Origin: Thermoplasmata archaeon
Lineage (GTDB): Archaea; Thermoplasmatota; Thermoplasmata; RBG-16-68-12; JAGMCJ01
Assembly (NCBI GenBank): GCA_046761005.1
Contig: JBHIFI010000002.1
Coordinates: forward strand, 1,914 to 65,913
Length of the DNA stretch: 64,000 bases
Direction of reading: 5' to 3'
Shown here: in pieces, positions 38,530-61,144 of the stretch
Layout of the letters: each line of letters starts with the position of its first letter
How positions within the stretch are numbered: the first letter of the stretch is position 1
The notes under the pieces: model-generated
Database searches by the model: none
Told to the model about the DNA's origin: nothing
Seen by the model: the letters and a program-made list of their open reading frames with translations, nothing else
Translations under genes and position numbers: made by a program

Positions 38530-40806
38530 CTACTTCTCCCTTCTTCTGAAAGATGCTATCACTAGAACTGCCAGTAGGGTGACCGCAACTACTGCGAATG
38601 TGCCGATATCGGGAATAGGTTCGGTCGTGACTACTTCTTTTGGCACAACACCGCCCCAGCCCCTCACGGCGATGTTTGCGAATCCGCTTCCTTCCTGGTA
38701 TCCCTCCTTTTCTGCTGTCACCGTAACCCTGAAGTTCGTGTCGGTCGTGACGTTTCCGGTGAAGGAAGCCGACCATTCTCCATCAGATACCTCTGTGAGC
38801 GTTCCAAGTGTTGTGCCCGCCAAATCCACAGACATGTGAACTGTGCAATTGGCAACGGGAAGTAGGTCCTTATCCGTTATGACTACCGTGACTGTCGTTG
38901 TCTCACCAGAGTTGATTATTGGTGCCGTTCCAGTGACATCGACATCAAGGGGATTGACAGCTGGATGCACTGTTAGCTTGATACTGTCTGAGGCTCCTTC
39001 GTATGTCTGCAGGAATACTGTTGCCTCAATCTCAACATCTGTTGAATCCGAGACGTCTGGAGCAACGTATTTGGTTTCGAAAACGCCCAGTGAATCCGTC
39101 GTCCCACTCGGAGATTCGAAGATCCCGATATCAGCAGAGAGTTCGACATTCACCCCTTCCACACTTGATTCACTTTCGTCAAGCACAAGCACAGTCACAG
39201 TGACGTTGCCACCAGATTCCACGGAAGACTCGGATGTAGACAGCGTTTTTAGCACGAGCGGGCCCACTTGTATCTTGTGGAGGTTTGTGAAAGACCAGAA
39301 GTTGTTTATTCCTCCAGCCATGTCTACCCAGCCCCCATAGACCGTTCTGTTGTAGGCCTCGATTGCATCGTACGAAAGGACGGGAGCAAACAGAACTTTC
39401 TCTGAGATGAGCCCGAGGGCTTGATGAACGTATGTCTGCCTGGTTGCCATGTCTATTGCATCATCCGCCGCATCGAGTGCCGCCGTTATCTCAGGATCGC
39501 TGTAATCAGCAAGCATAGGAATTTCCCTAATGGTAGCGGGCTCGAGGGGAAGCCTTTCCATTGCTAGGTAGATGTCAAAGCCAGAGGGATCCGTGGCCGT
39601 TGTGTTTAGGGAGACGCTAAGCCCGAGCCTATTGAGGAGTCCACTGTAAGCGATTGCTATGTTGGATTTCGTTATGTCCTCTGCAATTGAGGGTCCTAAC
39701 ATTGTCATCTGAAGTGCACTGCCATCTGGTTTTTCTCTCCATCCATCTCCGTCCCTGTCACTATAGTTCAGCCTTTCAAGTTCGAGAAGGCTGGGCACAT
39801 AGTTGGTGTCAGTTTCTCCAGCAGGATTGAGGAATGACCCTGCATTATACTTCACTATGGATCGATTGTACCAGGGCTCATTTTGGGAACTCATCGGTGA
39901 GTGGACTATGATTGTATTTGGCTCCAAAGAGAGGAACAGCTCCTTGTTTATGGCCATGGCCAGAGCCTTCCTAAGTTCTGGGGTTGCCAACTCGTCGATT
40001 GGATTGAAACCAATGAAGAGGTATTCAAGTCCGTAAGTGTAGGAAATCGCGAGCTTTCCTACTTCTGCTTCAGTCATTATACTCTTGTTCTCATATCTGG
40101 CATCGGTCGTATCAGTAGGAGCGAGGGTCCAGCCTATGAAATCAACGGTCCCATTGATTAGCGCATTTGCCGCCGCATCGATGTCTTGATAGACCTTGAA
40201 TTCTATGGTGTCAAGATAGGGTCTGCCATGGAAGTACTCGCTGTAGGCACCAATGGTGACGCTTTCCGCCGTGGTGCCGATGAACTCGAAAGGACCGCAC
40301 CCCTCAGTGGGAGCGGCATCGTCGGACTTAACAAGGGGCTTCTGCAGGCCCTCCGTCATGAACTTCCCTCCGCCACCACCAGAGAAGTCAAAGCGAACCT
40401 CTGTCGGGGAGAGAATGCTCACGTCATAGCCGCCATAGTAAGTTCCGAAGGTGTATTCCACATCCGTCGCAGTAACTGGAGTGTCGTCATGCCAGAGGAC
40501 ATCGGTTCTCAAGACAACGGTCACCGTCTGATTCTCCTGATCCACTGACCAGCTTTCGGCAACCCAAGGCTTTACCTGAAGAGTGACCGGGTCGAGACGT
40601 CCAAGAGAGTCGTACAGAAGGTCAATCATGTGCAAACTAGCTTCATCTGATGCTGTCTTGGGATTCAAATCCAGTGCAGTATCCTTCACAGCAACCCGGA
40701 AGTCTCCTCCGTACAGTCCGGAGATCTCTTCTGGAGTGGCGGCAAAGGCAGAGACAGCGAAACTCAGGACGAAGAGCATCGTCAGTCCGAATGCTAGTGT
40801 TCTCAT
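38530..40806 (-). CDS. Extracellular solute-binding protein, family 5 (oligopeptide/dipeptide OppA/DppA-like), with two C-terminal Ig-like domains and a C-terminal TM anchor
   Basis: Signal peptide MRTLAFGLTMLFVLSFAVSAFA. SBP_bac_5 core (DFRVAVKDTALDLNP..., WHDDTPVTATDVEYTF). About 180 extra C-terminal residues of beta-rich repeats end in a TM plus RRREK. ATG overlaps the subtilase stop (ATGA). Confidence 0.8.
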   Translation of the reverse strand: MRTLAFGLTMLFVLSFAVSAFAATPEEISGLYGGDFRVAVKDTALDLNPKTASDEASLHMIDLLYDSLGRLDPVTLQVKPWVAESWSVDQENQTVTVVLRTDVLWHDDTPVTATDVEYTFGTYYGGYDVSILSPTEVRFDFSGGGGGKFMTEGLQKPLVKSDDAAPTEGCGPFEFIGTTAESVTIGAYSEYFHGRPYLDTIEFKVYQDIDAAANALINGTVDFIGWTLAPTDTTDARYENKSIMTEAEVGKLAISYTYGLEYLFIGFNPIDELATPELRKALAMAINKELFLSLEPNTIIVHSPMSSQNEPWYNRSIVKYNAGSFLNPAGETDTNYVPSLLELERLNYSDRDGDGWREKPDGSALQMTMLGPSIAEDITKSNIAIAYSGLLNRLGLSVSLNTTATDPSGFDIYLAMERLPLEPATIREIPMLADYSDPEITAALDAADDAIDMATRQTYVHQALGLISEKVLFAPVLSYDAIEAYNRTVYGGWVDMAGGINNFWSFTNLHKIQVGPLVLKTLSTSESSVESGGNVTVTVLVLDESESSVEGVNVELSADIGIFESPSGTTDSLGVFETKYVAPDVSDSTDVEIEATVFLQTYEGASDSIKLTVHPAVNPLDVDVTGTAPIINSGETTTVTVVITDKDLLPVANCTVHMSVDLAGTTLGTLTEVSDGEWSASFTGNVTTDTNFRVTVTAEKEGYQEGSGFANIAVRGWGGVVPKEVVTTEPIPDIGTFAVVAVTLLAVLVIASFRRREK

Positions 40807-43800
40807 GGCTCACCCTCCTCTGGTGGCGGGATTTCCTCAGTTGGCTCTTCAGGAGGGACCTCTTCGGCAGGAGGCTCTTCCGGAATCTCAATCTCCTCCA
40901 GTGCTTCCTCCTCTTCCGGAACCTCCTCAACGACCTCTTCTTCAACGGGTGGGATCTCTTCCTCCGGAACTTCCTCCTCAGGCACTGCAGGCTTCTTTCC
41001 CAACGTGAGGCCAATGACAAAGCCAATTACGAGGAGAACGATAGCAAGAGCAGTGAGTATCAATGTTGTCCATGTTTGCTTCGTAACCTTCATCTCCGGA
41101 GACCATGTAATGGATATAGCTTCCGAAGCAACATTTCCCGCCTCGTCCTTTGCTATGACTGTGATTTCGTTGGCGCCGTAGCTGAGGGTAACCTCTTTGC
41201 TGAAGGCTCCGTTCGACGGAACTACTGGAAGACCATTTACCGTCACGATTTCCACGTCGCCTGACACTGTTCCTGTAATGTTAATTCTTGAAACCAAAGC
41301 TTCCCCGGTTATCGGGTCAACGTTGTCCTCAGGAATAGAGACCGTCAGGGTAGGAATGACGGTGTCTCTAATCATGACTGTGTCATTACTGTAGAATGTA
41401 TGGCCTGCGGCGTCAACCGCCTCTATTTCAATAGTGTTCGTGCCTTCCTCCAGCGCTACGGTCGTTTCAAAGCTTCCGTCCTCGTTCACTGGAACAATCC
41501 TCCCAGCGATGGTCAACTCCACAGTCTCGTTGAACTTCCCAGAGATTATGATGGATTCTGCGTTTGTTGGCCGGGCCTGCGACTCAGATGTAATCAGGTA
41601 TTCCAGTACGGGCGGATTCGTGTCAACTGTTATGAGTCTTGTCACAACAGCGGTGTTGCCAGCTTGATCTTGGGCTTCAACGATAAGTGGATTGAGCCCC
41701 TCTGTCAATTGGTCAAACAGATAGGAGAAGGAACCGTCTGGGCTTACGGGCACCTCCTCAGTGCGAATTAGGACAGTCGCTTCAGGCTCGGTGGTTCCAG
41801 TTATCATAGTATAGTTTGTCGGAACGGTGATGTCCGTTGATGGGTAATCAATTTCAAGCAATGGCGCGGTCGTATCTACGTAGAAATGCCATGTCATTTC
41901 TTCTATATTGCCTGCGTAATCTCCAACCTGCGTCTTCACCGTATGCATTCCATCGGCAAGAGGTGCATTTGGAGCATAGCTGACTGTTCCTATTGCATAA
42001 CCACCGAGATCTGAATCGAAGGTTACTGTGACCAACGACATAGCAGTTATGTCAACACCATCCAACCACAAGCCTATCGTTGTTGAATCCATCTCTCCTT
42101 GGCTGTCAGAAAAGCCTGCGAGTATTGGAGGCATGTTATCCGACGTTACTGAACCATCTGGAGGAGTCATTTGGATAACCTCTGGAGGAGTGGTGTCGTA
42201 GTTCAGTTCGACGGGAACGAGAAGCGTCAACGAGAATGGCGTGTTCCCTGGTGATGCAAAGAAGGCTGCTTTAATCACTCCCTCAGGGGTATCCACTGGA
42301 AGGTCCCATTCAAGATTGAGGATTTCGCTGGAGTACCTCTGAATGATATCCGCAGTGTATGTAACTTGGAAGGGCGATGGTCCCACCTTAAGTTCTGTGA
42401 TTATCATGTCCGCAAGTGAGCCGACCCTCCAGATGTCGAAGCCAGCCATCTTGATAATGTATCTACCTGGCGTTGGAAGGACCAGGACTACAGTCTCATC
42501 TGCGTCTGCGTCGGCATCGTACTTGACAAATTCGTCTGCTTGAGCCTCATCATCGCCGTTCTCGTCGAGGAATATTCCGAGGTCCATATCTGGGCAGCAG
42601 TCGACATGTCCCATCAGATGGAACTCTATCGTTATGACTGAAGCATCGACGTCCCAAAGCATGGTGTTCTTTGAACTAGCAAGGTATTCCTGGAAAGTTA
42701 TTTCGCCGGACGTATAGGGCTCCGGGTCATCAAATTCAACTGGAATGTCGAGGAACTCGTGGGTTTCTGAACCAGCAACAGTGACGCCTATCGGCTTGCC
42801 AAAGAACTCGTGGAAAGGATCTGGATTGGGTAACCACGGTAGAGTCGTCGAAAAAATCATCTCGGTTGAGCCCTGCAACTGACTCGTAGCAACATCAATC
42901 GGATAGGGTGTCATGCTAAGAAGACCTGTTTCTCCGGAGATGACATCAGCGGCTTCCTCCCCTTCGACTGTGACTGTTTGCACGATTAGGACGTTAAGAC
43001 CTGCACTAACACTGAGACCCTTGAAGAGACCATTTCCGACTCCCGCCCAGTCTGGAGTCTTCTTGAAGTATCCTGGAGCTCCAACATCCGTTTCGACGGC
43101 CACGAACGGCCCATATCTGCTCTCATTCAGCTTAGAGAAGACAAGGTCGCCAAAAGCAGAAGAACCTTCCTCAGTCGCCTGAGCGAGATGCCGCATATCG
43201 CCATAGGTGTTGTTCCCATCCATACCTATGTCAATTGTGAACTTCATCCCCTCTCTGAATACGAATGTATCAGGAACGTCGAAGAAGTAGTACCTCAAGT
43301 CATACGCGCCTCCGTAACCTCTAAGAGCATTGTTATCGTACAGTGTATCGGAAATAGCGGTTCCTCCGAACTGGAAGTTTGTGGAACCCTCGTGAGCCAC
43401 ATTTATTACCACTGGAATGGTTGTGACATTGTTCTCGTTTGTTAGGCGGATTGCACCCTCATAGAGTCCTATGTCCGTACCTGGCAGCACAGTTGCAGTT
43501 GCTACGAAATCAAATGAGCCGCCTGCGGTTATGTCGATGGTCGGTCCAAGAGGTGTGACACCATCATCCTCATAAAGAGTAACCATCGGCCAGTTCTGGT
43601 GCTCGAAGAACTCAATTGTCACAGTGACGGGTCCGGGTACAGGGGCACCGGCGAGATGCCTCCACCAGATGATTAGTCCATCATGAGTTCTTGCTGCGGG
43701 ATCGTAGACTCTGACCTCGAAGGAGTTCTCACCCAAGTAGACTCCCATCCTGTTTCTTTCAAACCAAGCTCCTGTCACTCCGAAGGGCAGATCTGGATCG

Positions 43801-46800
43801 ACTAGCATCGCTCCTGTGGAGGTCCACCACAGGTCTATCTCACCTCCATAGCTCACCGCCCAGAACCAGTCATAACCAGGTGCGAAACCTACGTCTGTAA
43901 TTCCATAATCATATGTAGGAGTGACAGACGTTATGACTGAATCGGCTAGAATGTCCCAGATTGCCACATCCGTTGCATTGGCAACCGCCAGATACATGTT
44001 GGCCACATCAAAGTCTACACACATTGGATATTCCTGTAACATCGTATATGTTGGCGGGAGATAATCGTACTCAACCGTAACGTTTGCCCCCAACGCGAGT
44101 GTGCCAATGTAGAGCAATATGCCATTAGCGGTATACATGATATAGTCACCCATGCCACTCGCGATGTCAAGCTCGTAGACTGGCGAACCGTCCACCCAAA
44201 CCTGGTATGAGAATGGAACGACGCTCGTGTTCCCTAGGAAGAACACTGGGAAACCTGTGTAGTTGAAGGTGTCATTCCCCGTTGAAGGCGCCAGGGTCAT
44301 ATCCCAGACATTCACCGTTCCAGTGCCAGCCATGCTCCAGTCAGATCCCAATCCTACCGAAGCGAGCCACATGCTGTCAGAGCTGAACCTAAGGTCCATG
44401 ACTCCGTCAGCGTCAGCAGACCAATCGCCATCCTCATGGCCACTAAATCCTCCAATGTATGCACTTGTGGTCGGATCCCAGAGCATTATGTAGTTATCCC
44501 AGATACCGAAGGCGCCGCCGGAACCCGTTGCGATGACGGACCCATCTGGGCTCCATGCAATGGTGTTGACGACTTCAAGATGGCCGCACATCGTTGAAAG
44601 CACATTCCCTGCGAGGTCCATGACAAAGACGTCTCCCAAGAATCCGGGGAGGCAAAAGTCTCGCGGGAGTCCATTTAACCATCTGATGGCTGAGTTGAGA
44701 CTCGAGACATACGCTATCTGACTCTCATTCGCCGGATTGAACTCCACTCCATTGATCGAGTAGCCGAAGAGGAGGTCATCCGAGACTACGATTCGTGAGC
44801 GGGTAGGTACATCCCAGACTGCAACTGCGCCAGAATCGATGGGCCACCCACCCGAAGAGGCCGCTAGCATGCTGCAGTTGGATGAGAAGTCTATGTCATT
44901 GATCATCGTGCCTTCCAACCCTCTTAGCCTGTCAATCGGATAACCGGTTGCATTGTCCCATAGAATGATGATGCCATCCTCCGCACCGGTTGCGAAAATC
45001 GTGCCATCGGAGCAGAAATCCATGGCGGTAACGTTCGCGGAATGCCCAAAGAACCGTTCATTCATGTTGACATCGGTCCAGTCATGCGGTTCTACGTATA
45101 TCATCTGGTTGGTCAGCAGGTCGATATCGAAATGGGCGGTAATTCTGAGAAGGTCCGCATTGTTCCATCTTGTAGCATCCATGTTGGGTCCAAACTTCCT
45201 TCCTAAGAAGTCGTAGAATCCTGTCTCGTTGATGATAGTCCAGTTGTTACCCACGGGCTCTGGCGGTGCTTGAATGGAGGGCTCGAATGCATATTCTATG
45301 GTGCCCATCCTCTTCAGGTAGTCAGCAGAAACTCCAACGTTGGTCAAGTCTGCCGGTCCGCGATTCTCCACCGTAATCATTTCGGAATCAGACTCACCAA
45401 CCGTAAGGAAGTGGACGAAGGCCACATAGTCCTCTCCCCTGTAGTCGCCTGGATACCAGACCTCAGGATCGGCGAGAATACCTCCTCTGTTGCCAGCTAG
45501 ATCAGTGGCGCGCAGGGCATTACCGTACCCATGACCCTGAGTGAAGACATCATAGTTCATATCATCAGCACTTGACAGCAGAATCTTCTGAGCTTCAAAA
45601 GCATCCATGTAATATCCGTGCTCCTGCTCATATGCATCCTGCATGAGTGCGATTACGGCTGTTGCGTGCGGTGCAGCCATACTTGTGCCTGCATCTATGT
45701 CCCATGCAGCAGTCCCATCACGGAATGGGTTCAACGGATAAGCATCATAGACCCAACCACCAGCAAAGCAGATATCAGGACCTAGTTGACCAGTTGCGGA
45801 GGGTCCCCAAGAGGAGAGATAGGCTATCCCGCCGTAGTGGGGATTCGGTCCTCCATCGTATTCAAACTCTGGTTGCACCCTGTAGAAGAGGTCCCACGCC
45901 GCGCAAGCGCTGATGGTTCCTGGTGTGACCGAGTTTCCGGAGGTCCCATAGCCGGTACCCTCATTTCCAGCGGCTTTCACATGGATTGTCTTGCCCTCTG
46001 CGTACTGGGTTGTGACCCAATCTCCATATCTCTCGCCAAGAGTCCATCCTGTTTCAATCGGATTGGAACCGAAACTCCAACTCAATACGAGGCCTTCATC
46101 GCCGGTCCCTGGCACTCCATCATAACCCTCTACACCGAAGAGGAATCCGTGATACTGGGTGAATGCGCCATGCGAAGTCCCCCCGGGTATCGAAATAACC
46201 TTCGCATCAGGTGCCAATCCCATCAGCTTCGGTATACCACCGATAGGAGTCACGCCCTGACCCACGATACTCGTGGCTACAGCTGTTCCATGCGAGCCGT
46301 ATATCGCACCGCTGAAGGCAACCATATCACCGGCGCCCCAGTAGTAGTTGTCCACTCCCAGGCGTCCTGCGACGATATCCGAATAGGGTATTGGTACAAC
46401 ACCGTAGGAATAATTCACAGTGATGACATCGAAGCTTTCAAGTGGATATGTGAATGTGAAGTTCCCCGTCACCCTGTTCAGAATCCATGGGTGGTACTCG
46501 TAGGTCGCTCTGGCAATACCGCCAGGCGGCAGTCCATTGGACAAAGTAATGAGACCTTCTGTGTAGTCAACTGTGTAATCATCTCCCGTCACCAATTTGC
46601 CCTCAGCATCGTTCCAATCATTTCCTTCAATAAGAACTCCATCGTAACTGTAGTTAGCCCAGAAGGTATCTCCTGGCATATTGACTATGAGGGGGTCCGG
46701 ACTACTCAGAAGTTCAGCTCCAAGCACGACCTCGCCCGTTCCTGCATCAGCGGCGTAATTGCCGGGATCGATTTCTGTAATCACAGGTCCAAACCAGTCC

Positions 46801-49061
46801 TGCTCTTCATCGCCATCAAAGTCAGTAAGACGGACTCTGTAGAGAACAATATCAGTGAATCCCGTATGCGTGAGATTGAAACGGTCATCGGTGGCGGGAT
46901 CGACGACCACGAATTGTTTGGTCATGTCGGTTGGGTCTCTTCCAGTCTCATTTAGCACAGCGCCTGTTACAGTGAGCACAATGGTATCTTCAACGACATT
47001 CTTGTTCGCAAGTTGCAGTTCCTTAGTCAGTTCTGTGGCGTCGAGAACCAACTCATCGACGATGGGTATCGTATTCCATGGTATGGAATTCTTACTCACA
47101 TCCACAACGTCGCTTACGGTCACATTTCCGTTGGCTAGTTGACCCCAAGTCTCACCGCCGATTGCAGTGGTGCCTGTAATGTTGGTTTCATTGCCTAGAA
47201 CGAGCTGTTCGCCTGTGATATTTGTGGCATTACTTATGAAGTAGAGAAGACCGCCAGAAACGTCCGCGAGACCATCAAGGTCCAGGTCCTTCCATAAGTT
47301 CGGGCTAGCCTTCGTGGCAGCCATCTCATTTGTGAAATTGAAGTCATTGTCCAGGTCTACATATACTGTGTCGTATACTCCATTCCATGTCGAGTCAACC
47401 ACAAGCACCGCAGGCGCCATGAAGTATGCAGCTTTCAAGCTAGAATCCCAGTGAAGACCTACATGGTACTTTCCACTTACGCTCGCAATTCCTGTCACAT
47501 CGTAGTCGGTATCCTGCATGACAATGCTGACGAAATCGATGTAGATATCGGCAAGTGTTGGGTTGGAGGTCGCGTATCCAAGAATCACCAGTATGTAGTC
47601 GTTCTCTGTTTCTGGATTGTATATCGGTGAGAACACCTCAGGATTGGCTCCAGTGCTTGTTTCTTGGTAAGAAACCAGTTCCGACTGGTCTATGTCATTG
47701 TCTCCGTTTGCATCGTAGTAAAGTGCCAGGTCCAAGTCATCACCGGGCGTGAATGCGACCAAAATATTCATCTGGACTGTTCCGACAGGAACCGCGAATG
47801 GTAGTCTATATCCAGCGGTCAAGAACACATCTGGAAATCCAGCACTCAGATCATCATCATATATCTCCACGCCAAGATAGGAGGTCGGTGTCAGGAGAGG
47901 AGCATCCCTGTAGTAAGTGATTATGTCCCCCACGGCCTGGAGTTCTGTTGAAGTATCGACAAACATACCTGATAGTTTGCCCTCCTCGGAGAGATAGGTA
48001 TCAATCGCCGGCGGTTCGAACGAAATGGGCCATCCGGCGTACGGTGAGCTGTACTTGTAGGTGGCAGTTACAACATCATTGAGTACCAAGGGCGTCACAA
48101 AGGTTATCACGCCAGTCGCTGAATCAAAGGTGTAGTTAGCAGGGGGCATCAGATTGCCGTTCAGATAGAAGGAATAGTCAGTAACATCCATATGCATGAG
48201 GGTGGCATTCGTCTCACCACCAACAGCTTTGATGACAGTTATGTTATCTATCGTGGTATTATCGGGCTGGACGGCCCAAGTCCCCTGGAGGTCAGAATGT
48301 CCGAAATCTATTCCCTGATCGAGGACTACGACGACCTCTCCAGCTCCCGTGTACCCATTGGCCCAGGCTTGATCCGCCATATGAGTTACCACGGAGATCC
48401 AATCATTTGTTGTCGGAGGATCTTCTCCCATTGGCTGAGGTCCCTCCGAACCACGCATCGAACCCATCGGTTGGGATGGAGAGTCAATGACAACAGGATC
48501 CAGTTTTATGCCCTTTTCCCTTGCCTTTCTTTCTATCCATCGATTCTGGTCCAGTGGTTGGCGGTTGAGTGGAACGTCTCCACCAACAACCTCTTCTTGC
48601 ACCTCCAACATGTCAGGGGTGTAGACTTCCTGCCGTCCTATCAACAGAACCTCATCAATCGCGCTCAGTACTGGGAGAACGTAAGCGGGAACCTCAAGAA
48701 TTATCGGTGTTGGTATCGTCTTTATTGTCGCTTTCTCACCAATCAATCCCCGATATTCATACTTCTCGAGAGCCCTAGCTACTGCGGAGACATCCGAGAC
48801 TATGAGGACCACGCCTACCATCTCTTTGCCTCCGCTCTTCGCCAAATCTAGCAGAGCAGGATCGATTTTCCCTAGTGCGAGCTCCTCCGGCTGAGGAAAT
48901 GAAGGTTCCTCCGCTAAGAGAAATTCTTCACCTTGCCCGACGGGCTTCTCGTCGAACGCCTCACCACCTGAAGATGTTGCGAGTGTGGTGCTGACGAAAA
49001 GCGATAGGGCAAGCAGCCCTACAACGATTCCACTAATCCACTTGACACTTTTTTTGGACAT
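40803..49061 (-). CDS. Giant (2752 aa) secreted/membrane-anchored S8 subtilisin-like serine protease with WD40 beta-propeller repeats, multiple Ig-like/beta-sandwich domains, a C-terminal TM helix and an acidic (PEE)n tail
   Basis: Signal peptide MSKKSVKWISGIVVGLLALSLFVSTTLATSS. Catalytic motifs in D-H-S order: VVVLDQGIDFGHSDL, HGTAVATSIVGQG, GTSMAAPHATAVIALM. WD40-like units (FGHSANVTAMDFCSDGTIFATGAEDGIIILWD; CGHLEVVNTIAWSPDGSVIATGS). C-terminus ...LILTALAIVLLVIGFVIGLTLGKK followed by PEEEVPEEEIPP.... Promoter TATA at 49118-49125 and a GGAGG Shine-Dalgarno. Confidence 0.85.
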   Translation of the reverse strand: MSKKSVKWISGIVVGLLALSLFVSTTLATSSGGEAFDEKPVGQGEEFLLAEEPSFPQPEELALGKIDPALLDLAKSGGKEMVGVVLIVSDVSAVARALEKYEYRGLIGEKATIKTIPTPIILEVPAYVLPVLSAIDEVLLIGRQEVYTPDMLEVQEEVVGGDVPLNRQPLDQNRWIERKAREKGIKLDPVVIDSPSQPMGSMRGSEGPQPMGEDPPTTNDWISVVTHMADQAWANGYTGAGEVVVVLDQGIDFGHSDLQGTWAVQPDNTTIDNITVIKAVGGETNATLMHMDVTDYSFYLNGNLMPPANYTFDSATGVITFVTPLVLNDVVTATYKYSSPYAGWPISFEPPAIDTYLSEEGKLSGMFVDTSTELQAVGDIITYYRDAPLLTPTSYLGVEIYDDDLSAGFPDVFLTAGYRLPFAVPVGTVQMNILVAFTPGDDLDLALYYDANGDNDIDQSELVSYQETSTGANPEVFSPIYNPETENDYILVILGYATSNPTLADIYIDFVSIVMQDTDYDVTGIASVSGKYHVGLHWDSSLKAAYFMAPAVLVVDSTWNGVYDTVYVDLDNDFNFTNEMAATKASPNLWKDLDLDGLADVSGGLLYFISNATNITGEQLVLGNETNITGTTAIGGETWGQLANGNVTVSDVVDVSKNSIPWNTIPIVDELVLDATELTKELQLANKNVVEDTIVLTVTGAVLNETGRDPTDMTKQFVVVDPATDDRFNLTHTGFTDIVLYRVRLTDFDGDEEQDWFGPVITEIDPGNYAADAGTGEVVLGAELLSSPDPLIVNMPGDTFWANYSYDGVLIEGNDWNDAEGKLVTGDDYTVDYTEGLITLSNGLPPGGIARATYEYHPWILNRVTGNFTFTYPLESFDVITVNYSYGVVPIPYSDIVAGRLGVDNYYWGAGDMVAFSGAIYGSHGTAVATSIVGQGVTPIGGIPKLMGLAPDAKVISIPGGTSHGAFTQYHGFLFGVEGYDGVPGTGDEGLVLSWSFGSNPIETGWTLGERYGDWVTTQYAEGKTIHVKAAGNEGTGYGTSGNSVTPGTISACAAWDLFYRVQPEFEYDGGPNPHYGGIAYLSSWGPSATGQLGPDICFAGGWVYDAYPLNPFRDGTAAWDIDAGTSMAAPHATAVIALMQDAYEQEHGYYMDAFEAQKILLSSADDMNYDVFTQGHGYGNALRATDLAGNRGGILADPEVWYPGDYRGEDYVAFVHFLTVGESDSEMITVENRGPADLTNVGVSADYLKRMGTIEYAFEPSIQAPPEPVGNNWTIINETGFYDFLGRKFGPNMDATRWNNADLLRITAHFDIDLLTNQMIYVEPHDWTDVNMNERFFGHSANVTAMDFCSDGTIFATGAEDGIIILWDNATGYPIDRLRGLEGTMINDIDFSSNCSMLAASSGGWPIDSGAVAVWDVPTRSRIVVSDDLLFGYSINGVEFNPANESQIAYVSSLNSAIRWLNGLPRDFCLPGFLGDVFVMDLAGNVLSTMCGHLEVVNTIAWSPDGSVIATGSGGAFGIWDNYIMLWDPTTSAYIGGFSGHEDGDWSADADGVMDLRFSSDSMWLASVGLGSDWSMAGTGTVNVWDMTLAPSTGNDTFNYTGFPVFFLGNTSVVPFSYQVWVDGSPVYELDIASGMGDYIMYTANGILLYIGTLALGANVTVEYDYLPPTYTMLQEYPMCVDFDVANMYLAVANATDVAIWDILADSVITSVTPTYDYGITDVGFAPGYDWFWAVSYGGEIDLWWTSTGAMLVDPDLPFGVTGAWFERNRMGVYLGENSFEVRVYDPAARTHDGLIIWWRHLAGAPVPGPVTVTIEFFEHQNWPMVTLYEDDGVTPLGPTIDITAGGSFDFVATATVLPGTDIGLYEGAIRLTNENNVTTIPVVINVAHEGSTNFQFGGTAISDTLYDNNALRGYGGAYDLRYYFFDVPDTFVFREGMKFTIDIGMDGNNTYGDMRHLAQATEEGSSAFGDLVFSKLNESRYGPFVAVETDVGAPGYFKKTPDWAGVGNGLFKGLSVSAGLNVLIVQTVTVEGEEAADVISGETGLLSMTPYPIDVATSQLQGSTEMIFSTTLPWLPNPDPFHEFFGKPIGVTVAGSETHEFLDIPVEFDDPEPYTSGEITFQEYLASSKNTMLWDVDASVITIEFHLMGHVDCCPDMDLGIFLDENGDDEAQADEFVKYDADADADETVVLVLPTPGRYIIKMAGFDIWRVGSLADMIITELKVGPSPFQVTYTADIIQRYSSEILNLEWDLPVDTPEGVIKAAFFASPGNTPFSLTLLVPVELNYDTTPPEVIQMTPPDGSVTSDNMPPILAGFSDSQGEMDSTTIGLWLDGVDITAMSLVTVTFDSDLGGYAIGTVSYAPNAPLADGMHTVKTQVGDYAGNIEEMTWHFYVDTTAPLLEIDYPSTDITVPTNYTMITGTTEPEATVLIRTEEVPVSPDGSFSYLFDQLTEGLNPLIVEAQDQAGNTAVVTRLITVDTNPPVLEYLITSESQARPTNAESIIISGKFNETVELTIAGRIVPVNEDGSFETTVALEEGTNTIEIEAVDAAGHTFYSNDTVMIRDTVIPTLTVSIPEDNVDPITGEALVSRINITGTVSGDVEIVTVNGLPVVPSNGAFSKEVTLSYGANEITVIAKDEAGNVASEAISITWSPEMKVTKQTWTTLILTALAIVLLVIGFVIGLTLGKKPAVPEEEVPEEEIPPVEEEVVEEVPEEEEALEEIEIPEEPPAEEVPPEEPTEEIPPPEEGEP

Positions 49062-50725: not shown

Positions 50726-51736
50726 TTAGCACTTTATGCCTAACGCGAGATCCGTTTTCTTGATACTTTCTATCTTGTCGCTTTCGATTCCAGTCATGGC
50801 TCTGATCGCATCAATATTTTCTGGGACGACATCGGATTCCTGATGAATCGCTTGGTAGTAGTACAGGGTATCGCCCACAACATGAGTTCCGTCTCTCCAC
50901 ACCGCTATCTCGTAAAGGTCCGTCCTGTTTCTGCACATGTCCTTTGCCATCTCCATTATCTGAGCCGTGGATTTGATTCCTTCCTCGCCATCGACGATAA
51001 GAATTCTGGGCGACTCCTCCCACAGAGTGAGGATATCTTCCCTCCTAACCTCCCGCTTGAGCTTGACCATGAGGGAATGAAGGTGCATTATCGTCGTAGG
51101 AACCTTCACAGCGGTAGTCTGAATGTTCAGGTAGGGCATGACAGTTTGAACGTCAGGACCATGATGGGAGGGCACCTTAAGAACAGGCTCTATGGCATTG
51201 ATCGGACCCCTCTTTGTGTCCCAGGGATCCGCTCCCCGCCTAACCATCACAGCCATGACATACTCGATTCCGTACTCTCGATGAAGAGGGAAAAGCGTTC
51301 TTATCAGCCCAGTTGTGTTGCACGATACCACCCTGAGGAAGTCAGCGCCGATTGCATCTTCATAGTTCGCAAGCGCGTTGAATGAGAGATTCGTCAGCTC
51401 GTGCTTCTCGCCACCTTGCCAGATGGCCTTGACGCCAGCTTTCTCATAGAGCTCCTTGTAGCCGCTTTTCTTGGGAGTTCCGTCCACGATTAAGTCGGCT
51501 TCTTGGAGAAGGTCTTGGAGAGTTCCATGAACATCGATACCCTTATCCTTGAATCTTCCAACGAATTCCTGGGATGCCGCATAGAACGGAAAACCTCTCA
51601 AGATTGCCATCTTGGCCTCATAAGTCGGCCTCGTTTTTGTCACTCCGACTATTTCCATATCATCTTGTGAGGCAACGGCATCCGCAATCCTCTTGCCTAT
51701 CGTCCCATAACCATTGATTGCAACCTTGATGGCCAT
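50726..51736 (-). CDS. gap: Glyceraldehyde-3-phosphate dehydrogenase, archaeal type (phosphorylating, type II)
   Basis: MAIKVAINGYGTIGKRIADAV, catalytic VSCNTT, PSHHGPD. 336 aa. Confidence 0.9.
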   Translation of the reverse strand: MAIKVAINGYGTIGKRIADAVASQDDMEIVGVTKTRPTYEAKMAILRGFPFYAASQEFVGRFKDKGIDVHGTLQDLLQEADLIVDGTPKKSGYKELYEKAGVKAIWQGGEKHELTNLSFNALANYEDAIGADFLRVVSCNTTGLIRTLFPLHREYGIEYVMAVMVRRGADPWDTKRGPINAIEPVLKVPSHHGPDVQTVMPYLNIQTTAVKVPTTIMHLHSLMVKLKREVRREDILTLWEESPRILIVDGEEGIKSTAQIMEMAKDMCRNRTDLYEIAVWRDGTHVVGDTLYYYQAIHQESDVVPENIDAIRAMTGIESDKIESIKKTDLALGIKC

Positions 51737-51781: not shown

Positions 51782-52762
51782 TCAGAGCGGAAAATAGAGC
51801 TCCTTGCGAATCCGCGGAATCATCGCCATCAGGACTGCGGACTCACAGAGATTTGAGCGGGTTACAATTTCATCGGAGAGATAGCCAATAGCTCCCTTGT
51901 TCTCTTTGATTCGGGCGGTCTCGAGGTCCGCCAAAGCGCCTGCGAGATCGCTCCCCATCTCTAGCTTTTCTATAATCTTGGCGGGAAGCATAAATCCCGC
52001 GCTATGTCCTACCGTAACTTTCTCAAGCTTGTCAACGACCGCACAGAATTGAATGCAGAAATGGGATTTCGACTCCTCATCCCAAACGACTCCCGACTCA
52101 ATCCCGACTCCGAAATCCGCCTCCTCCAGACTTTCGCGGGCACGGTTTGCAGCACCTTGAAGAGCCTCTTTGTTCATGGGTTGCCTGGGAACATCGGAGG
52201 GCACGGAAACTCCGTGAACCTCTACTTTACCAAAGAGCTTGAGGAATACGTCCCTGACCGCCCATATCTTGGTCTTGTTTCTTGAACCAACATTAACAAT
52301 CAGCTGACGGATCATCTTTCCATTCTCGTCTATCTCCTCGAGCCTTATTCTTCTGCAAGATATAGGGACGCAGTCCTCAGCAAGAACCATATCCACCTTA
52401 ACGATCTTCAAGGGCCTCAGACCTGCCGCCATCCTTTCTTCATTTATCTCCTCCGCAGTTCTCCTTGTTTCATGGGAAACCACGATCGCGTCAAGTGGCT
52501 CAGTCTTCGCCGGTCCAAATCTGTCCTCTATCTTGACAATTTCGAAGTTCGAATGTCCACTAGCCGTGAGGTAGTTGCTCAGAGCCGCTTTTCTCGCCTC
52601 GTAGGGGGAAACAGGATAGCTCTTCTCTGACTGGGCCATTTCATTCGAGGTGAGACCGATAAGCACCCCCTCTCCGACCTCAAATGCATTTGCCAGAAGA
52701 GCCTTGTGACCCTTGTGAATTCTATCGAACGTCCCGCCCAAACATACCTTCAGACCTGCCAC
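51782..52762 (-). CDS. Fusion protein: archaeal phosphopantetheine adenylyltransferase (PPAT, COG1019) + DUF84/YjjX/MJ0226-type non-canonical NTP pyrophosphatase
   Basis: N-terminal half: GGTFDRIHKGHKALL (HxGH nucleotidyltransferase) ... VLAEDCVPISCRRIR, typical of archaeal PPAT. C-terminal half: VNVGSRNKTKIWAVRDVF...QPMNKEALQGAANRA...GVGIESG...GYLSDEIVTRSNL matches DUF84 ITPase/XTPase. The reading frame is uninterrupted. Likely start is GTG 52762 or TTG 52768 (ORF-track 52924). Confidence 0.7.
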   Translation of the reverse strand: MAGLKVCLGGTFDRIHKGHKALLANAFEVGEGVLIGLTSNEMAQSEKSYPVSPYEARKAALSNYLTASGHSNFEIVKIEDRFGPAKTEPLDAIVVSHETRRTAEEINEERMAAGLRPLKIVKVDMVLAEDCVPISCRRIRLEEIDENGKMIRQLIVNVGSRNKTKIWAVRDVFLKLFGKVEVHGVSVPSDVPRQPMNKEALQGAANRARESLEEADFGVGIESGVVWDEESKSHFCIQFCAVVDKLEKVTVGHSAGFMLPAKIIEKLEMGSDLAGALADLETARIKENKGAIGYLSDEIVTRSNLCESAVLMAMIPRIRKELYFPL

Positions 52763-52971
52763 CCCCAACTGAGGAGGAGAATAAGGATAAGAATGATGAT
52801 GCTGCCAACATACAAGAAAAGAAGCTGGTTCTTCTTCCTCTTCAATCTTCTCTTGTGATCGTTCTCGCACTCTTTTGAACAGAAAATATCCTTTGTGGGT
52901 ATTGCCCGTCCACATCCTAGACAATGCTTGTGCTGGATTAATCTTTCGACCATTGCCTGTTCAATCATCAC
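52750..52971 (-). CDS. Small zinc-ribbon protein with C-terminal TM helix (DUF2116-like)
   Basis: 73 aa. CLGCGRAIP...FCSKEC zinc ribbon, then a KRRLKRKK basic stretch and a hydrophobic tail. Overlaps the downstream fusion-gene start. Confidence 0.5.
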   Translation of the reverse strand: MMIEQAMVERLIQHKHCLGCGRAIPTKDIFCSKECENDHKRRLKRKKNQLLFLYVGSIIILILILLLSWGWQV

Positions 52972-53109
52972 TCCGTATTAAATAATTGTCTTTGCACTCT
53001 GAGCTCAGGGTGGCGAGTTCAGCTTCTAACAGTAAAGATTTGCGAAAATATTAAATAGGGCGAGGGGTATCTAAACGTAACCAGTCAGGTTTCTCATGTC
53101 GGAGAGCAG

Positions 53110-53373
53110 ATGAAACGTTTGGGAATTGTGGCAGACGTCTCTTATCGAGGAACGCTGGTCATACGTGCTGAAACCGCTCCCAGAACGGGAGAGGAGGTCT
53201 TCACCAGTGAAGGAATGCATATCGGCAGGGTCGAAAAGGTGTTTGGCCCGGTTTCCCGCCCCTACGTTTCTGTGAGACCGACATCGAGAAAGCAGAAGCT
53301 GATCGGGATAATAGGTAAGGAACTCTACCTAGAGGAATGGGGGCGAGATATTGCCGAAGAAGAAGAAGGTTGA
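53110..53373 (+). CDS. gar1: H/ACA ribonucleoprotein complex subunit Gar1
   Basis: 87 aa. Gar1 barrel ([18 protein letters not shown]...[20 protein letters not shown]) and acidic tail. Confidence 0.8.
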
Positions 53374-56722: not shown

Positions 56723-57346
56723 ATGGACTCCGTGAGGAGGGGCGGTTCCTGTATTTTCGTAATGCCTGTGATAAGGGGCCTCGTCAGTGAGGCGAGGGAG
56801 GTAGATCGGGCGGTTCAGGAGACGAAACCGGATGCGCTTGGTATTTGCGTATCAAAAGAGGAACTCAAGACGTTGGACGCCCTTGGAGGTCAAAGGACAG
56901 AGCCCTCAAGCTCTCACGAGGAGGCCTATATGAGGGGACTGGAAAGATTCGGAGAGGTGAGGAAGCCACCGCCATGCTACTCTGAGGGGTTATCAATGGC
57001 AAAACGTCTGAGAATACCGTGCATCGCCTTGGACATGGATGAGAGTCTATATAGTGAGGCATACTGCACTTTCGTTTCTGTCGTTGATGTGATGAGGCAA
57101 ACGAGGGATTCTCGTGTAGTTCTGGAGAAGGAATTCCAGGCTCAGTCGCCCGAGGAATTCGTTTTGGAACTCGATGCGTACGTCAATAGGCACAAGGGTT
57201 TTGAGAGGCTGGAGCGGGAAAGGGAGAGATATATAGCTCTGAGACTGTCCAAAATGCAAGGCAAATGGTCAAGAATTCTTGCCCTTGTTGAAGTAGAAAG
57301 GGCAAATGGTGTCATCGAGAACTTGGAACGACTACTCCCTCTCTAG
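56723..57346 (+). CDS. Hypothetical protein, possibly TraB/PrgY-like; co-operonic with the upstream regulator
   Basis: 207 aa; starts 5 nt after the previous stop. A weak N-terminal resemblance to TraB-family proteins (....EVDRAVQETKPDALGICVSKEELKTL) is the only basis for the product call. Confidence 0.4.
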   Translation: MDSVRRGGSCIFVMPVIRGLVSEAREVDRAVQETKPDALGICVSKEELKTLDALGGQRTEPSSSHEEAYMRGLERFGEVRKPPPCYSEGLSMAKRLRIPCIALDMDESLYSEAYCTFVSVVDVMRQTRDSRVVLEKEFQAQSPEEFVLELDAYVNRHKGFERLERERERYIALRLSKMQGKWSRILALVEVERANGVIENLERLLPL

Positions 57347-60300
57347 CTCTATTGTCACTCCTCTGTCTACGTCACCTATGTCCAGATCGTAGATTATCGT
57401 ATCGCGACTGTCTACAATGTCCGATTTCCAGCCTGGCTGCTCATTCTTGTACCAGACGGTCTTTCCTGTGGATGTCCCTATTACGACGTCATCCCAATAG
57501 TCGCCATCAACATCGCCGGCCCTCAGCGCGTTGACATCACCATCAGTGTCCGCCACCTTGGTGCTGTTCCATGCCGTGCCGGGAAGTTCGTTCTCAAACC
57601 AGTATACCTTGTCGTCATCCGTACCTGCGACAACATCGAGGTCATCATCACCATCTATATAGGCAAGATCTACGGCGAGGACGGAACCAGTTGCTTCGAG
57701 AGTATCCCCTGAGGGGAGTTCGCCCGTGCCATCATTGTATCTCATATGGACATTCCCGCTTGAAGTGGCTAATGCTACGTCCAGGTCATCATCATCATCA
57801 ACGTCACCGATGGCGATATCGTTCACAGTGCTAACAGCGTTCCAAGCATAGTGTTCGGCGACCACTACATATCTTCTGATGAACATGTGGTCGATATAGA
57901 CAGTATCATTGTTCATGTTGCCGTTGGTGCTGTCCGTGTCTATGACCCTAACGTATATGTTACCGCTAATAGTCGTGGGAAGGCTAGCACCCGTGTATGT
58001 GTTCGGGTCTGAGGTGTAAGCGACAGTCACCATATCCGACCACGGGCCGCTCGAACTCGTCGAATACTGGAACAGAAAGTCGTCTTGCTCGCTGTTATCT
58101 GTGTGGTAGGCCTCAACAAAGAACTTGTATGCATCTCCGCCAGCAGCGATAGATTCAATTCTCCAGATGTGGTCGAGAGTGCTTGTCGTTCCGTTTTCCG
58201 TGGAGGACTCCACAAACATATAATCGATCGAGAGTGTAGTCGCCATTCCATCGGTATTACCATCATTCTTGCTGCTGTCGCTATCTCTTATCCAAATGTA
58301 GAGCTGTCCTCCATTGAATCCGGCTGTCTTCAGGTCAAACACATCCGTTCCCTTTGTCGTCCTGCTGATTGCCCACACGAAGGATGGATTTGAATCCGTT
58401 GACCATCCCACCTCGAAGGGCTCAGTGCCTGTGCTTATGTAGCTTGTAACTGAGAGCTCAATACTGTCTCCGGACGAAACATTTCCGAAGTTGTACATGT
58501 GCCCACCGGCGCCCCCAGATTCGTTCCTCAAACACCACCATTTGTTTACACCTGCTTCAGCGCACAAGTCTTCAGTCAGCGTTTCGTATGTCCCATCATT
58601 CGAATGGGTATCTTGATAATCTCCGACCACGATGTCATATACAGCCGCCTGCTCTCCATCCGCCAGATACGTGCTAACGTCATATGCAGTTCCATTCACT
58701 TCCTCTATAGATTCGTAGGTATCATCAGTGTACCAGGTATCTGTGTACTCTCCGGAAACAGTTCCGTTTCCGGATATGTCCTGATCTGCAAGATAATCGG
58801 TTGTTGTGACTGTGCCAAACATACCATCCGTGTTCGTGTATATCCAGACCTCAGTTCCTGTGGCCACAACGAGGTCATCATCATCATCGCCATCCATGTC
58901 AGCAAGCCTTATCGCCTTTATTTCTGAGCCAGTATCATCTATAGGCATGGGTGTCCAGGCATTGTCATTTGCGTACCACCACAGGTCCCCGTCCTGTGTT
59001 CCAGCAACTATGTCCAGCAGGCTATCCTTATCGACATAACCTACGTCTACGGCTGTTACAGCCACGCCTAGGTCGTCCACTTCTCTTCGCTGCCAGTAAT
59101 GACCCTCTCCGCCCTGATTTCTATACACGAATATCTTTCCGACTTCGATTCCCTCAACCAGGTCGAGGTCAGTATCATCATCAATGTCTCCATAGACTAT
59201 GGATAAGAAACCTCCTGCTCCCCATGGGGGGTCTTGGTGACCTGGGAACGGAACATAGGATTCCACCTCATACTGCTCCCATCTGAATACGAGGTTCTCG
59301 AAAAATAGCGAGTAGATTTTCAAATCGAATACCGGGTGCGAATAGTCTTCGATGGCGGTGGCTATGTCCAAGTACCATCGTGGTCCCCGGATGGTGACGA
59401 GCCTGTTGAGGGATACTTTGTATTCCTCATTGATATCCTTGAGATAGAGAATCCTCAGGGTGTAGGCGTTCTCACCAAAAAGCCAGGGATCAAAGTTTGG
59501 CTTTGACAAATCTATGCTGAATTTGTAACTGACGGAGTTGTTTACGCTTGCCTCACTGATCGGGGGATTGCCTGGCTTTGCCCAAATCTGAATACCGCCA
59601 CCGAAATCCTGAATCTTGATATTTCCAAATTCGAACGTAGCATCAGTGTCTTGGACAATAACCTTCACATACATCGTGTCTGTGTAGTTGAAGATGTCCG
59701 AGGGATGCTCATGATCAGGATCGAGGAAGGTCAGAACCTGGGGATAGTTCGTAACGTTTCCTTCCTCATCTGTGACGGTAATGAAGTCTTGAACCTCAAA
59801 CAGGTTGTCAGGTGGAGGATAGTAGCTTGATCTCAGTTTTATCCTGAGAGAATAGTGACCATAGTCTAGCAACCCATCAGTATAGCCATGGCCCGCGCTA
59901 GACGTGTTCCATCTATATTCCCATATGTAGAACTTGCCCACGTAGTCGACGAGCTCAAAGGCCTCGGTTGAAGAGGGAATCGAAGTTCGGTTCATTGGCC
60001 CGCCGCCGTAGACTATGGGTTGTGGGGAGAGACCAGACTCAGCCTTGAAGAGCCAGAACTTATTGTCCAGATCGCAGTCGGGAAGAAAGTGGCTCGCGAT
60101 GACGATAACGATTCTCTCACCTTTCACGAATGTTCTTGTTGCGTTGCCCTCCCATCTTCTCTTGTCCCACTCCGTCTCATTGAATATCTGATAGTGTTGC
60201 AGGCCGCTTCCAGGAAGGAGCTCAGGACCGAATCTCGGAGTGGTTATGTTTTCTGGATATTCATAGTAATAGTGGTAGGCGGCGCCAAGTTCCTCAATCT

Positions 60301-61144
60301 TGAGGATGAGCCTCGCGCTCGTATTGTGACCAGCATCATCCTCGGCGGTCATAATCACAAGAGCGCCATCAAAGGTTTCATCGGCAACGAATTCTGGATA
60401 GACGGCACTCCAAATGCCATCGTCTGCTTCCTCGTCACCCATTGAACCGTTGTCGTACATCTTGAAGCAGCCGTAGTCATCATAGAGAATCGTTATATTT
60501 ACATAGACGTCATTGTCGCTGTCGAAATCCCCATCCTTATCCTCAATTTTGGCGAATATTCCGAAGGACTCATTCCCACGCAAATCCTCTTTGGCGATAG
60601 TCTCGAGATTACCATCGAACCATTTCTGGACGAAAAGTGGCGGATACTCGCCTCCTGCTCCCAAAATAGTGGAACTCCAGATCACCTCACCTCTTATGGA
60701 TTCAATGACACCAACTTCGACTACATCATCCGCCTCGATTGTGTGATTCACAATACTCCAAACCTCATCTATCGTCCAGTTCTCATCATCTCTTAATCCG
60801 TAGGGATCTCCAGAATTGGGTCCATACTCAATGGTCCCCTGAGTTTTGAGAAGCTCAAAGTCCTCGTTCACTCTTATGAACACTTTCGTCCTAAAGCCAT
60901 ATAGTTTCTCTCCACCTTGGTGTGTGATGTTGATAATAGCTCCGTCCCAGACACCTTGTTCATAGATTGGAGTGAGGGCTCCCTCCATCTGTAGTTTCAC
61001 TGAAGCCTCTGGTGTTGGAATAGAGTACACCCAGATAAATATGGCCGAGAAGATGACCACTGTAATGAGCAGTATCAGTATCGTTCCCACAACTTCCGAC
61101 ACACCTTTACCATCGCGGGAGAAACGTTTCTTATAGAGTGACAT
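57332..61144 (-). CDS. Giant (1270 aa) surface protein with an archaeal class III (type IV pilin-like) signal peptide and FG-GAP/integrin-alpha-like beta-propeller repeats
   Basis: N-terminus MSLYKKRFSRDGKG|VSEVVGTILILLITVVIFSAIFIWVY matches the archaeal pilin N-terminal (Pilin_N) consensus [KR]G-VSxVIG.ILL.ITVV. Repeated Ca-binding-like DxDxDG..D..V units follow (DVDGDGDDDLVV, DIDDDTDLDLVEG, DMDGDDDDDLVVATG, DVDDDDDLDVAL, DGDDDLDVVAG, DVDGDYWDDVVIG). Many N-glyc sequons. TATA at 61182-61190 and a GGAGGA Shine-Dalgarno. Confidence 0.8.
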   Translation of the reverse strand: MSLYKKRFSRDGKGVSEVVGTILILLITVVIFSAIFIWVYSIPTPEASVKLQMEGALTPIYEQGVWDGAIINITHQGGEKLYGFRTKVFIRVNEDFELLKTQGTIEYGPNSGDPYGLRDDENWTIDEVWSIVNHTIEADDVVEVGVIESIRGEVIWSSTILGAGGEYPPLFVQKWFDGNLETIAKEDLRGNESFGIFAKIEDKDGDFDSDNDVYVNITILYDDYGCFKMYDNGSMGDEEADDGIWSAVYPEFVADETFDGALVIMTAEDDAGHNTSARLILKIEELGAAYHYYYEYPENITTPRFGPELLPGSGLQHYQIFNETEWDKRRWEGNATRTFVKGERIVIVIASHFLPDCDLDNKFWLFKAESGLSPQPIVYGGGPMNRTSIPSSTEAFELVDYVGKFYIWEYRWNTSSAGHGYTDGLLDYGHYSLRIKLRSSYYPPPDNLFEVQDFITVTDEEGNVTNYPQVLTFLDPDHEHPSDIFNYTDTMYVKVIVQDTDATFEFGNIKIQDFGGGIQIWAKPGNPPISEASVNNSVSYKFSIDLSKPNFDPWLFGENAYTLRILYLKDINEEYKVSLNRLVTIRGPRWYLDIATAIEDYSHPVFDLKIYSLFFENLVFRWEQYEVESYVPFPGHQDPPWGAGGFLSIVYGDIDDDTDLDLVEGIEVGKIFVYRNQGGEGHYWQRREVDDLGVAVTAVDVGYVDKDSLLDIVAGTQDGDLWWYANDNAWTPMPIDDTGSEIKAIRLADMDGDDDDDLVVATGTEVWIYTNTDGMFGTVTTTDYLADQDISGNGTVSGEYTDTWYTDDTYESIEEVNGTAYDVSTYLADGEQAAVYDIVVGDYQDTHSNDGTYETLTEDLCAEAGVNKWWCLRNESGGAGGHMYNFGNVSSGDSIELSVTSYISTGTEPFEVGWSTDSNPSFVWAISRTTKGTDVFDLKTAGFNGGQLYIWIRDSDSSKNDGNTDGMATTLSIDYMFVESSTENGTTSTLDHIWRIESIAAGGDAYKFFVEAYHTDNSEQDDFLFQYSTSSSGPWSDMVTVAYTSDPNTYTGASLPTTISGNIYVRVIDTDSTNGNMNNDTVYIDHMFIRRYVVVAEHYAWNAVSTVNDIAIGDVDDDDDLDVALATSSGNVHMRYNDGTGELPSGDTLEATGSVLAVDLAYIDGDDDLDVVAGTDDDKVYWFENELPGTAWNSTKVADTDGDVNALRAGDVDGDYWDDVVIGTSTGKTVWYKNEQPGWKSDIVDSRDTIIYDLDIGDVDRGVTIELERE

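Follow-up and report, generated by a model that had tools for sequence, protein, structure and literature searches.

A gene on the minus strand of the window (the whole 64-kb stretch of DNA analysed here) encodes a single protein in which a pantetheine-phosphate adenylyltransferase (PPAT) is followed by a YjjX/DUF84-type non-canonical purine NTP phosphatase. This PPAT-DUF84 fusion is already catalogued, common in the Thermoplasmatota and known at the annotation level, and the window gene is of value mainly as an annotation note, carrying little weight as a discovery. The under-described part is the conserved order DUF2116, PPAT, NTPase. Taking the evidence together, we consider it very probable that the protein is a divergent member of the catalogued bifunctional family, that it has both activities, and that the fusion had a single origin and was kept for co-expression or association of its two halves.

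A continuous reading frame encodes both enzymes

The fusion gene and its landmarks are as follows:

51782..52762, minus strand: PPAT and YjjX-type NTP phosphatase fusion gene, continuous ORF, 326 aa
52762-52760, minus strand: GTG start codon of the fusion gene (stop codon at 51782-51784)
52307..52762, minus strand: N-terminal domain, residues 1-152, archaeal/eukaryotic-type PPAT with a nucleotidyltransferase Rossmann-like fold
52706-52717, minus strand: HKGH (HxGH), residues 16-19, codons CAC AAG GGT CAC, nucleotide-binding signature of the nucleotidyltransferase superfamily
52343-52363, minus strand: ISCRRIR, residues 134-140, second PPAT signature (ISSTRIR-like), read from the DNA
51785..52306, minus strand: C-terminal domain, residues 153-326, YjjX/DUF84 (NTPase_I-T) non-canonical purine NTP phosphatase
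52091..52105, minus strand: GIESG, residues 220-224, codons GGG ATT GAG TCG GGA, in the NTPase domain

In the ORF list the longest version starts at the TTG furthest upstream and has 380 aa (51782..52924), with no internal stops. The single uninterrupted ORF described in the initial annotation, which named no strand, is thus borne out as a continuous frame on the minus strand. No homologues match the first 54 codons of the 380-aa version, which overlap the preceding gene. The 326-aa protein from GTG 52762 begins MAGLKVCLGGTFD (MAGLKV), and this GTG is almost certainly the real start, judging from its agreement with the GenBank protein MFQ6127415.1 and with the N-termini of homologues. MFQ6127415.1 (P0001), from a metagenome-assembled genome (MAG) of a Thermoplasmata archaeon, is identical to the window protein over 326 aa and is named by PGAP as 'inosine/xanthosine triphosphatase' only.

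Both domains retain their family signatures

Profile searches matched both halves, as the initial annotation had expected, and its division of the ORF into a PPAT part at about residues 55-215 and a remainder of about 170 residues agrees with the domain matches in 380-aa numbering. In Pfam, residues 62-194 of the 380-aa ORF match the cytidylyltransferase-like family PF01467 (E = 5.6e-14), and residues 213-372 match the full profile of PF01931 (NTPase_I-T/DUF84; E = 9e-49), with 165.9 bits against a cut-off of 25. The NCBIfam PPAT model NF001985 aligns with residues 59-206 (E = 4.5e-54; profile positions 6-154 of 157) and scores 182.8 bits, well over its curated cut-off of 104. The equivalog model for inosine/xanthosine triphosphatase, TIGR00258, covers residues 212-377 with 134.7 bits (cut-off 117.1), while the narrower NF003039 gives 156.8 bits, under its cut-off of 199.

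The DNA encodes the motif GGTFDRIHKGH, which contains the HKGH signature, and ISCRRIR pairs with ISSTRIK of the Archaeoglobus fulgidus PPAT (PDB 3do8) in the alignment. Conservation was assessed in an alignment (A1) of 12 fusion proteins that are 44-79% identical to the query. In the PPAT domain G10, T11, F12, H16, G18 and H19 are invariant in these 12 sequences, and R138 and I139 of the second motif are at least 90% conserved. In the NTPase domain S160, N162, K165, G220, I221, E222, G224, D244, R302 and E307 are invariant, E222 being the invariant acidic residue within GIESG. Conservation is about equal in the two halves: by tblastn, most loci have 40-51% identity in PPAT and 34-49% in the NTPase. 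Neither the motifs nor these identities gave any sign of decay in either domain. Given the retained signature motifs and the similar conservation of the two domains, two active sites are likely, and each domain likely keeps a complete active site of its own.

The C-terminal domain belongs to the YjjX family

The initial annotation had called the C-terminal half 'DUF84/MJ0226-type'. The assignment to DUF84/YjjX is right; the reference to MJ0226 does not hold, as MJ0226 is a Ham1 protein and shares only the fold. PF01931 was the sole Pfam match of the C-terminal domain, with no match to a Ham1 family at E ≤ 0.01, and the PDB sequence matches at E ≤ 10 comprised only YjjX and VC0702, with no MJ0226 or other Ham1 entry. 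Membership in the Ham1/MJ0226 ITP pyrophosphatases was accordingly rejected. The Ham1/RdgB/MJ0226 proteins form a separate sequence family whose resemblance to the window domain lies at the level of the fold superfamily. Escherichia coli YjjX and Vibrio cholerae VC0702 differ from the window protein in being stand-alone proteins, whereas the window DUF84 domain is fused to PPAT.

The products of YjjX-type enzymes are given in UniProt as NDP + Pi, and the same products were reportedly obtained by Zheng in 2005. The enzymes are termed pyrophosphatases in PMC3899018, which lists MJ0226 (PDB 1B78), as a Ham1/RdgB-type ITPase, apart from YjjX.

The two domains are joined by a rigid junction

In a PDB sequence search, residues 4-150 matched 3do8 (E = 7.8e-23) and residues 151-323 matched V. 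cholerae VC0702 and E. coli and Salmonella YjjX (E = 3e-19 to 2.5e-11). The alignments of the two halves abut, indicating that there is no linker between the domains: the NTPase domain starts where the last PPAT element ends. AlphaFold2, supplied with an alignment of 12 sequences, gave a confident model (pLDDT 88.5, pTM 0.79). When the PDB was searched with this model, 3do8 and YjjX/VC0702 were the top matches for the two halves, and the DUF84 chains of YjjX and VC0702 reached target-normalised Foldseek TM-scores of 0.83-0.86; the C-terminal domain has the YjjX fold.

At least 214 of the homologues fetched have the identical two-domain architecture. PPAT is N-terminal in 214/214 of these proteins, and the spacing at the junction equals that of the query in 194/214 and lies within two residues of it in 206/214. 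The junction is rigid and near-invariant in length.

The fusion is widespread in the Thermoplasmatota

The initial annotation knew of no description of this fusion. A curated NCBIfam model for it exists, NF002250/PRK01170, named 'bifunctional pantetheine-phosphate adenylyltransferase/NTP phosphatase', and the identical protein was already in GenBank. Domain content and order are the same in the NF002250/PRK01170 family, the length is similar (322 vs 326 aa), and the model aligned to the window protein end to end, from position 3 to 321 of its 322 (E = 3.9e-97). The score, 325.6 bits, lies below the curated cut-off of 489, which none of 20 other fusion representatives reached either (best, 375 bits; 364 bits for the Thermoplasmatales archaeon A-plasma relative). 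The window protein falls short of this cut-off because the model is narrow, and it represents another lineage within this fusion family.

An exhaustive HMMER search of 1.84 billion representatives at 50% identity returned 5274 matches at E ≤ 1e-3, and both domains were present in 97 of the best 150. Among the best 120 clusters at 90% identity, 119 carry both domains; these clusters bear the names Thermoplasmata, Methanomassiliicoccales and 'Thermoplasmatota' MAGs. The relatives that are 71-79% identical to the query have its length. In contigs from one genome per species, full-length fusions made up 27 of the best 80 loci. All 27 are labelled Thermoplasmatota, including a DHVE2 MAG, except for one in a generic 'archaeon' MAG (L022) and one in a MAG labelled 'Proteobacteria' (L013), probably through mis-binning. 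A distant fusion representative clusters with the A-plasma protein, and the fused gene has been called in that organism too. The taxa with the fusion therefore comprise Thermoplasmata, Methanomassiliicoccales, DHVE2 and Thermoplasmatales A-plasma. By the reasoning of the initial annotation, a wide spread of the fusion among annotated archaeal genomes would remove the novelty, and such a spread was found across the Thermoplasmatota.

Most members are named by PGAP and IMG for one activity, either 'inosine/xanthosine triphosphatase' or 'pantetheine-phosphate adenylyltransferase'. Owing to these one-activity names, automated metabolic reconstructions of Thermoplasmatota could wrongly report a gap at step four of CoA synthesis or a lack of the house-cleaning enzyme. 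No enzyme assay or experimental paper on any member of the fusion family was found in the literature searched, and full-text searches for DUF84, COG1986 or PRK01170 together with PPAT gave nothing relevant.

Split loci and stand-alone relatives

The initial annotation had asked whether relatives encode the two enzymes separately. Two loci have separate PPAT and NTPase genes. In these loci, NTPase representatives that had appeared as 'stand-alone' sit in clusters of DUF2116, PPAT (157-160 aa) and NTPase (176-185 aa), in that order, and the PPAT and NTPase genes, which differ in frame, share 26-44 nt. In one of them (L080) the frame changes at an A5 run. The split loci could be natural unfused versions or frameshift errors.

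Such loci are what might be expected if the fusion were an artefact, that is, a missed stop or frameshift that merged two adjacent genes in a MAG contig. Against this, the frame in the window is continuous, the identical 326-aa protein occurs on two contigs, its 71-79%-identical relatives are equally long, the junction is common to 214 independent sequences, and a curated model spans the full length of the fusion. The continuous frame and the recurring junction effectively refute an assembly artefact, the probability of which we regard as negligible.

Other stand-alone DUF84 genes lie in unrelated contexts, in bacteria beside smpB and in archaea beside an adenosine-specific kinase. Neighbour-joining trees for each domain did not cleanly split fused from stand-alone sequences, a 'stand-alone' class that is confounded by fragments of fusions. 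An AA_kinase was a neighbour in one split locus and was also seen in one fusion (P0262); it did not recur in the fetched loci or in the window. PPAT was also observed fused to a HIT-domain nucleotide hydrolase in one protein (P0227), and two PPAT-DUF359 fusions were present among the matches (P0258 and P0264).

Proposed function and comparison with known systems

By homology, the N-terminal ~150 residues would carry out step four of CoA synthesis (ATP + 4'-phosphopantetheine → dephospho-CoA + PPi), and the C-terminal 174 residues would act as a YjjX-type, Mg/Mn-dependent phosphatase on the non-canonical purine NTPs ITP and XTP. From the retained sequence features, we infer adenylyl transfer by the PPAT half and ITP/XTP hydrolysis by the NTPase half. 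Most likely a single event in an ancestor of the Thermoplasmatota fused two neighbouring genes that overlapped, and the fusion has probably been kept because it holds the two activities together physically or ensures their co-expression in fixed stoichiometry.

The PPAT domain shares its fold and its HxGH and ISSTRIR-like motifs with the stand-alone archaeal PPATs (COG1019; 3do8 and the enzymes of Pyrococcus abyssi and Thermococcus kodakarensis, TK2128), with 38% identity to 3do8 over the whole domain. The stand-alone enzymes stop after the GEID..G element, whereas the window chain runs directly into the second enzyme. In joining a nucleotidyltransferase to a second nucleotide-handling enzyme, the window protein resembles eukaryotic CoA synthase (PPAT fused to dephospho-CoA kinase, DPCK), archaeal PPAT-DUF359 and NadM-Nudix (PDB 2qjt). 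In CoA synthase and PPAT-DUF359 the partner catalyses the next step of the pathway, whereas no role in CoA synthesis is known for the partner in the window protein.

The fused NTPase might serve PPAT directly, as the initial annotation proposed, by destroying ITP and XTP in its vicinity and so preventing the formation of inosine and xanthosine analogues of dephospho-CoA. The stability of the association, with a rigid junction and with the fusion kept in over 90 clusters at 50% identity, is consistent with such protection, as are the split loci, in which the unfused PPAT and NTPase are still overlapping neighbours. The fusion of PPAT to a HIT nucleotide hydrolase in P0227 points the same way, and NadM-Nudix offers a precedent for pairing a nucleotidyltransferase with a hydrolase. 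However, no DUF84 gene was found within 3 kb of PPAT at any of 45 stand-alone archaeal PPAT loci, which implies that any coupling is lineage-specific, the link of PPAT with DUF84 being limited to a single phylum, and that PPAT in general needs no such partner. In addition, ITP and XTP diffuse freely, and without channelling the local benefit of a fused hydrolase is not obvious. On balance, we think protection of PPAT rather unlikely.

By analogy with PPAT-DPCK, the C-terminal domain could instead have been recruited to a step of CoA synthesis, either the phosphorylation of dephospho-CoA or the processing of a nucleotide in the pathway. Fusion partners of PPAT are often its pathway neighbours, as in the PPAT-DUF359 proteins among our matches, and it was through PPAT-DUF359 fusions that the archaeal DPCK was discovered (PMC6650551). 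That DPCK family (arCOG04076/DUF359), however, has been reported from almost all archaea (PMC6650551), which leaves no gap to fill, and the NTPase domain was set aside as a missing DPCK on this ground. The C-terminal domain also scores above the TIGR00258 equivalog cut-off and has retained every residue that is invariant in the family, and its closest stand-alone relatives, in bacteria and archaea, occur in unrelated contexts. Recruitment to the CoA pathway thus appears highly improbable. A fusion in which each domain would keep the activity of its own family is the reading that we prefer.

A DUF2116 gene precedes the fusion in many genomes

The following features lie at the upstream end of the fusion gene:

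52750..52968 (to 52971 if read from GTG), minus strand: DUF2116 gene, treble-clef Zn-ribbon and C-terminal transmembrane helix
52750..52762, minus strand: 13-nt overlap of the DUF2116 stop (TGA 52750-52752) with the fusion start (GTG)
52976..52985, minus strand: TATA-like box TTATTTAATA, centred ~27 nt upstream of ATG 52953

The upstream gene for a small zinc-ribbon and transmembrane protein, which the initial annotation had described as overlapping the start of the fusion, was confirmed by a match to PF09889 (DUF2116; 55.1 bits against a gathering cut-off of 26.8) and by the 13-nt overlap. Its candidate starts are GTG 52971 (73 aa), ATG 52968 (72 aa, the version in GenBank, P0326) and ATG 52953 (67 aa), the last of which corresponds to the N-termini of most DUF2116 homologues. 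The family pattern consists of H-x-H-C-x2-C...C-x3-C, a basic KKK(R/N)QL stretch and a C-terminal hydrophobic helix, and H13, H15, C16, C19, C30, C34 and K46 are invariant in an alignment of the family (A2). From these features, the product resembles a membrane protein anchored by its C-terminal tail, with a treble-clef zinc finger on the cytosolic side.

The 13-nt overlap is an arrangement typical of translational coupling, and the fusion gene would be co-transcribed, and probably translationally coupled, with the DUF2116 gene. The TATA-like box TTATTTAATA is a possible promoter of a leaderless transcript of the two genes.

In 17 of the 27 fusion loci the gene immediately upstream encodes DUF2116, is on the same strand and either abuts the fusion start or overlaps it, as counted by jackhmmer over all six-frame ORFs of the fetched loci (one of the 17 is cut by a contig end). 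The same search found DUF2116 at none of the 45 stand-alone PPAT loci and at none of 7 NTPase-only loci. It is also absent beside the fusion in one high-GC lineage from soil and in that of A-plasma, which has an aminotransferase gene upstream. A single-sequence search with the DUF2116 protein retrieved close relatives only, and the best 120 matches of a profile search all appeared to be Thermoplasmatota. A full-text search returned no relevant literature on DUF2116 or on its association with PPAT and NTPase.

The recurrence of this gene order, fused or unfused, in several orders of Thermoplasmatota leads us to propose, tentatively, that DUF2116, PPAT and NTPase form a functional module, in which the Zn-ribbon protein tethers the enzyme at the membrane and the NTPase has a PPAT-specific task. 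We hold this proposal to be doubtful, and improbable as a whole. If it were true, a late step of CoA synthesis would be placed at the membrane by the bound DUF2116 protein, and the YjjX-type domain would remove wrong nucleotide donors or side products, as opposed to cleaning the general nucleotide pool.

No second PPAT gene, second DUF84 gene or DUF359 (DPCK) gene was found elsewhere in the 64-kb window. The neighbourhood consists of core housekeeping genes, among them those for TruA, a SpoU methyltransferase, Gar1, TFB and a tRNA-splicing endonuclease, and the gene for an archaeal GAPDH (50726-51736) lies directly downstream of the fusion gene on the same strand.

Fused and split forms of the PPAT–NTPase module

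The module of the DUF2116 zinc-ribbon membrane protein, phosphopantetheine adenylyltransferase (PPAT) and NTPase also occurs in a split form, in which the three components are encoded by separate genes. This arrangement is present in the related locus L080 and in the locus encoding the homologue P0209:

L080, 22-1256: DUF2116, PPAT and NTPase as three separate genes
P0209 locus: the same three separate genes

In these loci the PPAT is 157-163 aa and the NTPase 176-185 aa in length, and the two genes overlap by 26-44 nt in differing frames. The change of frame in L080 is located at an A5 run; the split in this locus could be a natural fission, the ancestral state or a frameshift error. At the P0209 locus, DUF2116 is directly preceded by an AA_kinase gene, which does not recur in the remaining fetched loci or in the window. 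A separate homologue, P0262 (379 aa), is an AA_kinase–PPAT fusion.

The nearest stand-alone relatives of the NTPase domain share 42-50% identity with it and are from bacterial MAGs:

L026-L029, L035, L052: stand-alone NTPase; Bipolaricaulota, Fraserbacteria and Thermotogae

Many fused archaeal members are no nearer than these bacterial relatives, which hints at transfer of the NTPase gene between bacteria and archaea. The archaeal fusion itself (44% identity) is present in L013 (JAJPHT010000049.1), a MAG contig labelled 'Proteobacteria bacterium', which is probably a mis-binned Thermoplasmatota contig. Two further homologues, P0222 (347 aa) and P0244 (376 aa), are made up of two NTPase_I-T (DUF84) domains in tandem.

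Besides DUF84, the HIT domain is a second nucleotide hydrolase associated with archaeal PPAT. P0227 (276 aa) is a PPAT–HIT fusion, and several loci, for the most part from Bathyarchaeia, have a HIT-domain gene located upstream of stand-alone PPAT at a distance of ~2.4-2.9 kb:

L034, L036, L038, L042, L048, L057, L062, at about 70-690: HIT-domain gene near stand-alone PPAT

Genes flanking the fusion

The neighbourhood of the fusion in the window contains the following genes:

40803-49061, minus strand: very long ORF, 2752 aa
50726-51736, minus strand: archaeal-type GAPDH
53110-53373, plus strand: Gar1-like gene, 87 aa
53351-54289, plus strand: TFB gene
57332-61144, minus strand: very long ORF, 1270 aa

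The two very long ORFs flank the housekeeping cluster. The Gar1-like gene, which overlaps the TFB start by 23 nt, is divergent from the DUF2116 operon, and the AT-rich 140-nt spacer between them includes two TATA-like boxes. A 45-nt spacer with a TTTATAT-like box separates the fusion from GAPDH, which follows it on the same strand and is also the downstream neighbour in eight related fusion loci (L001-L004, L006, L009, L024 and L030).
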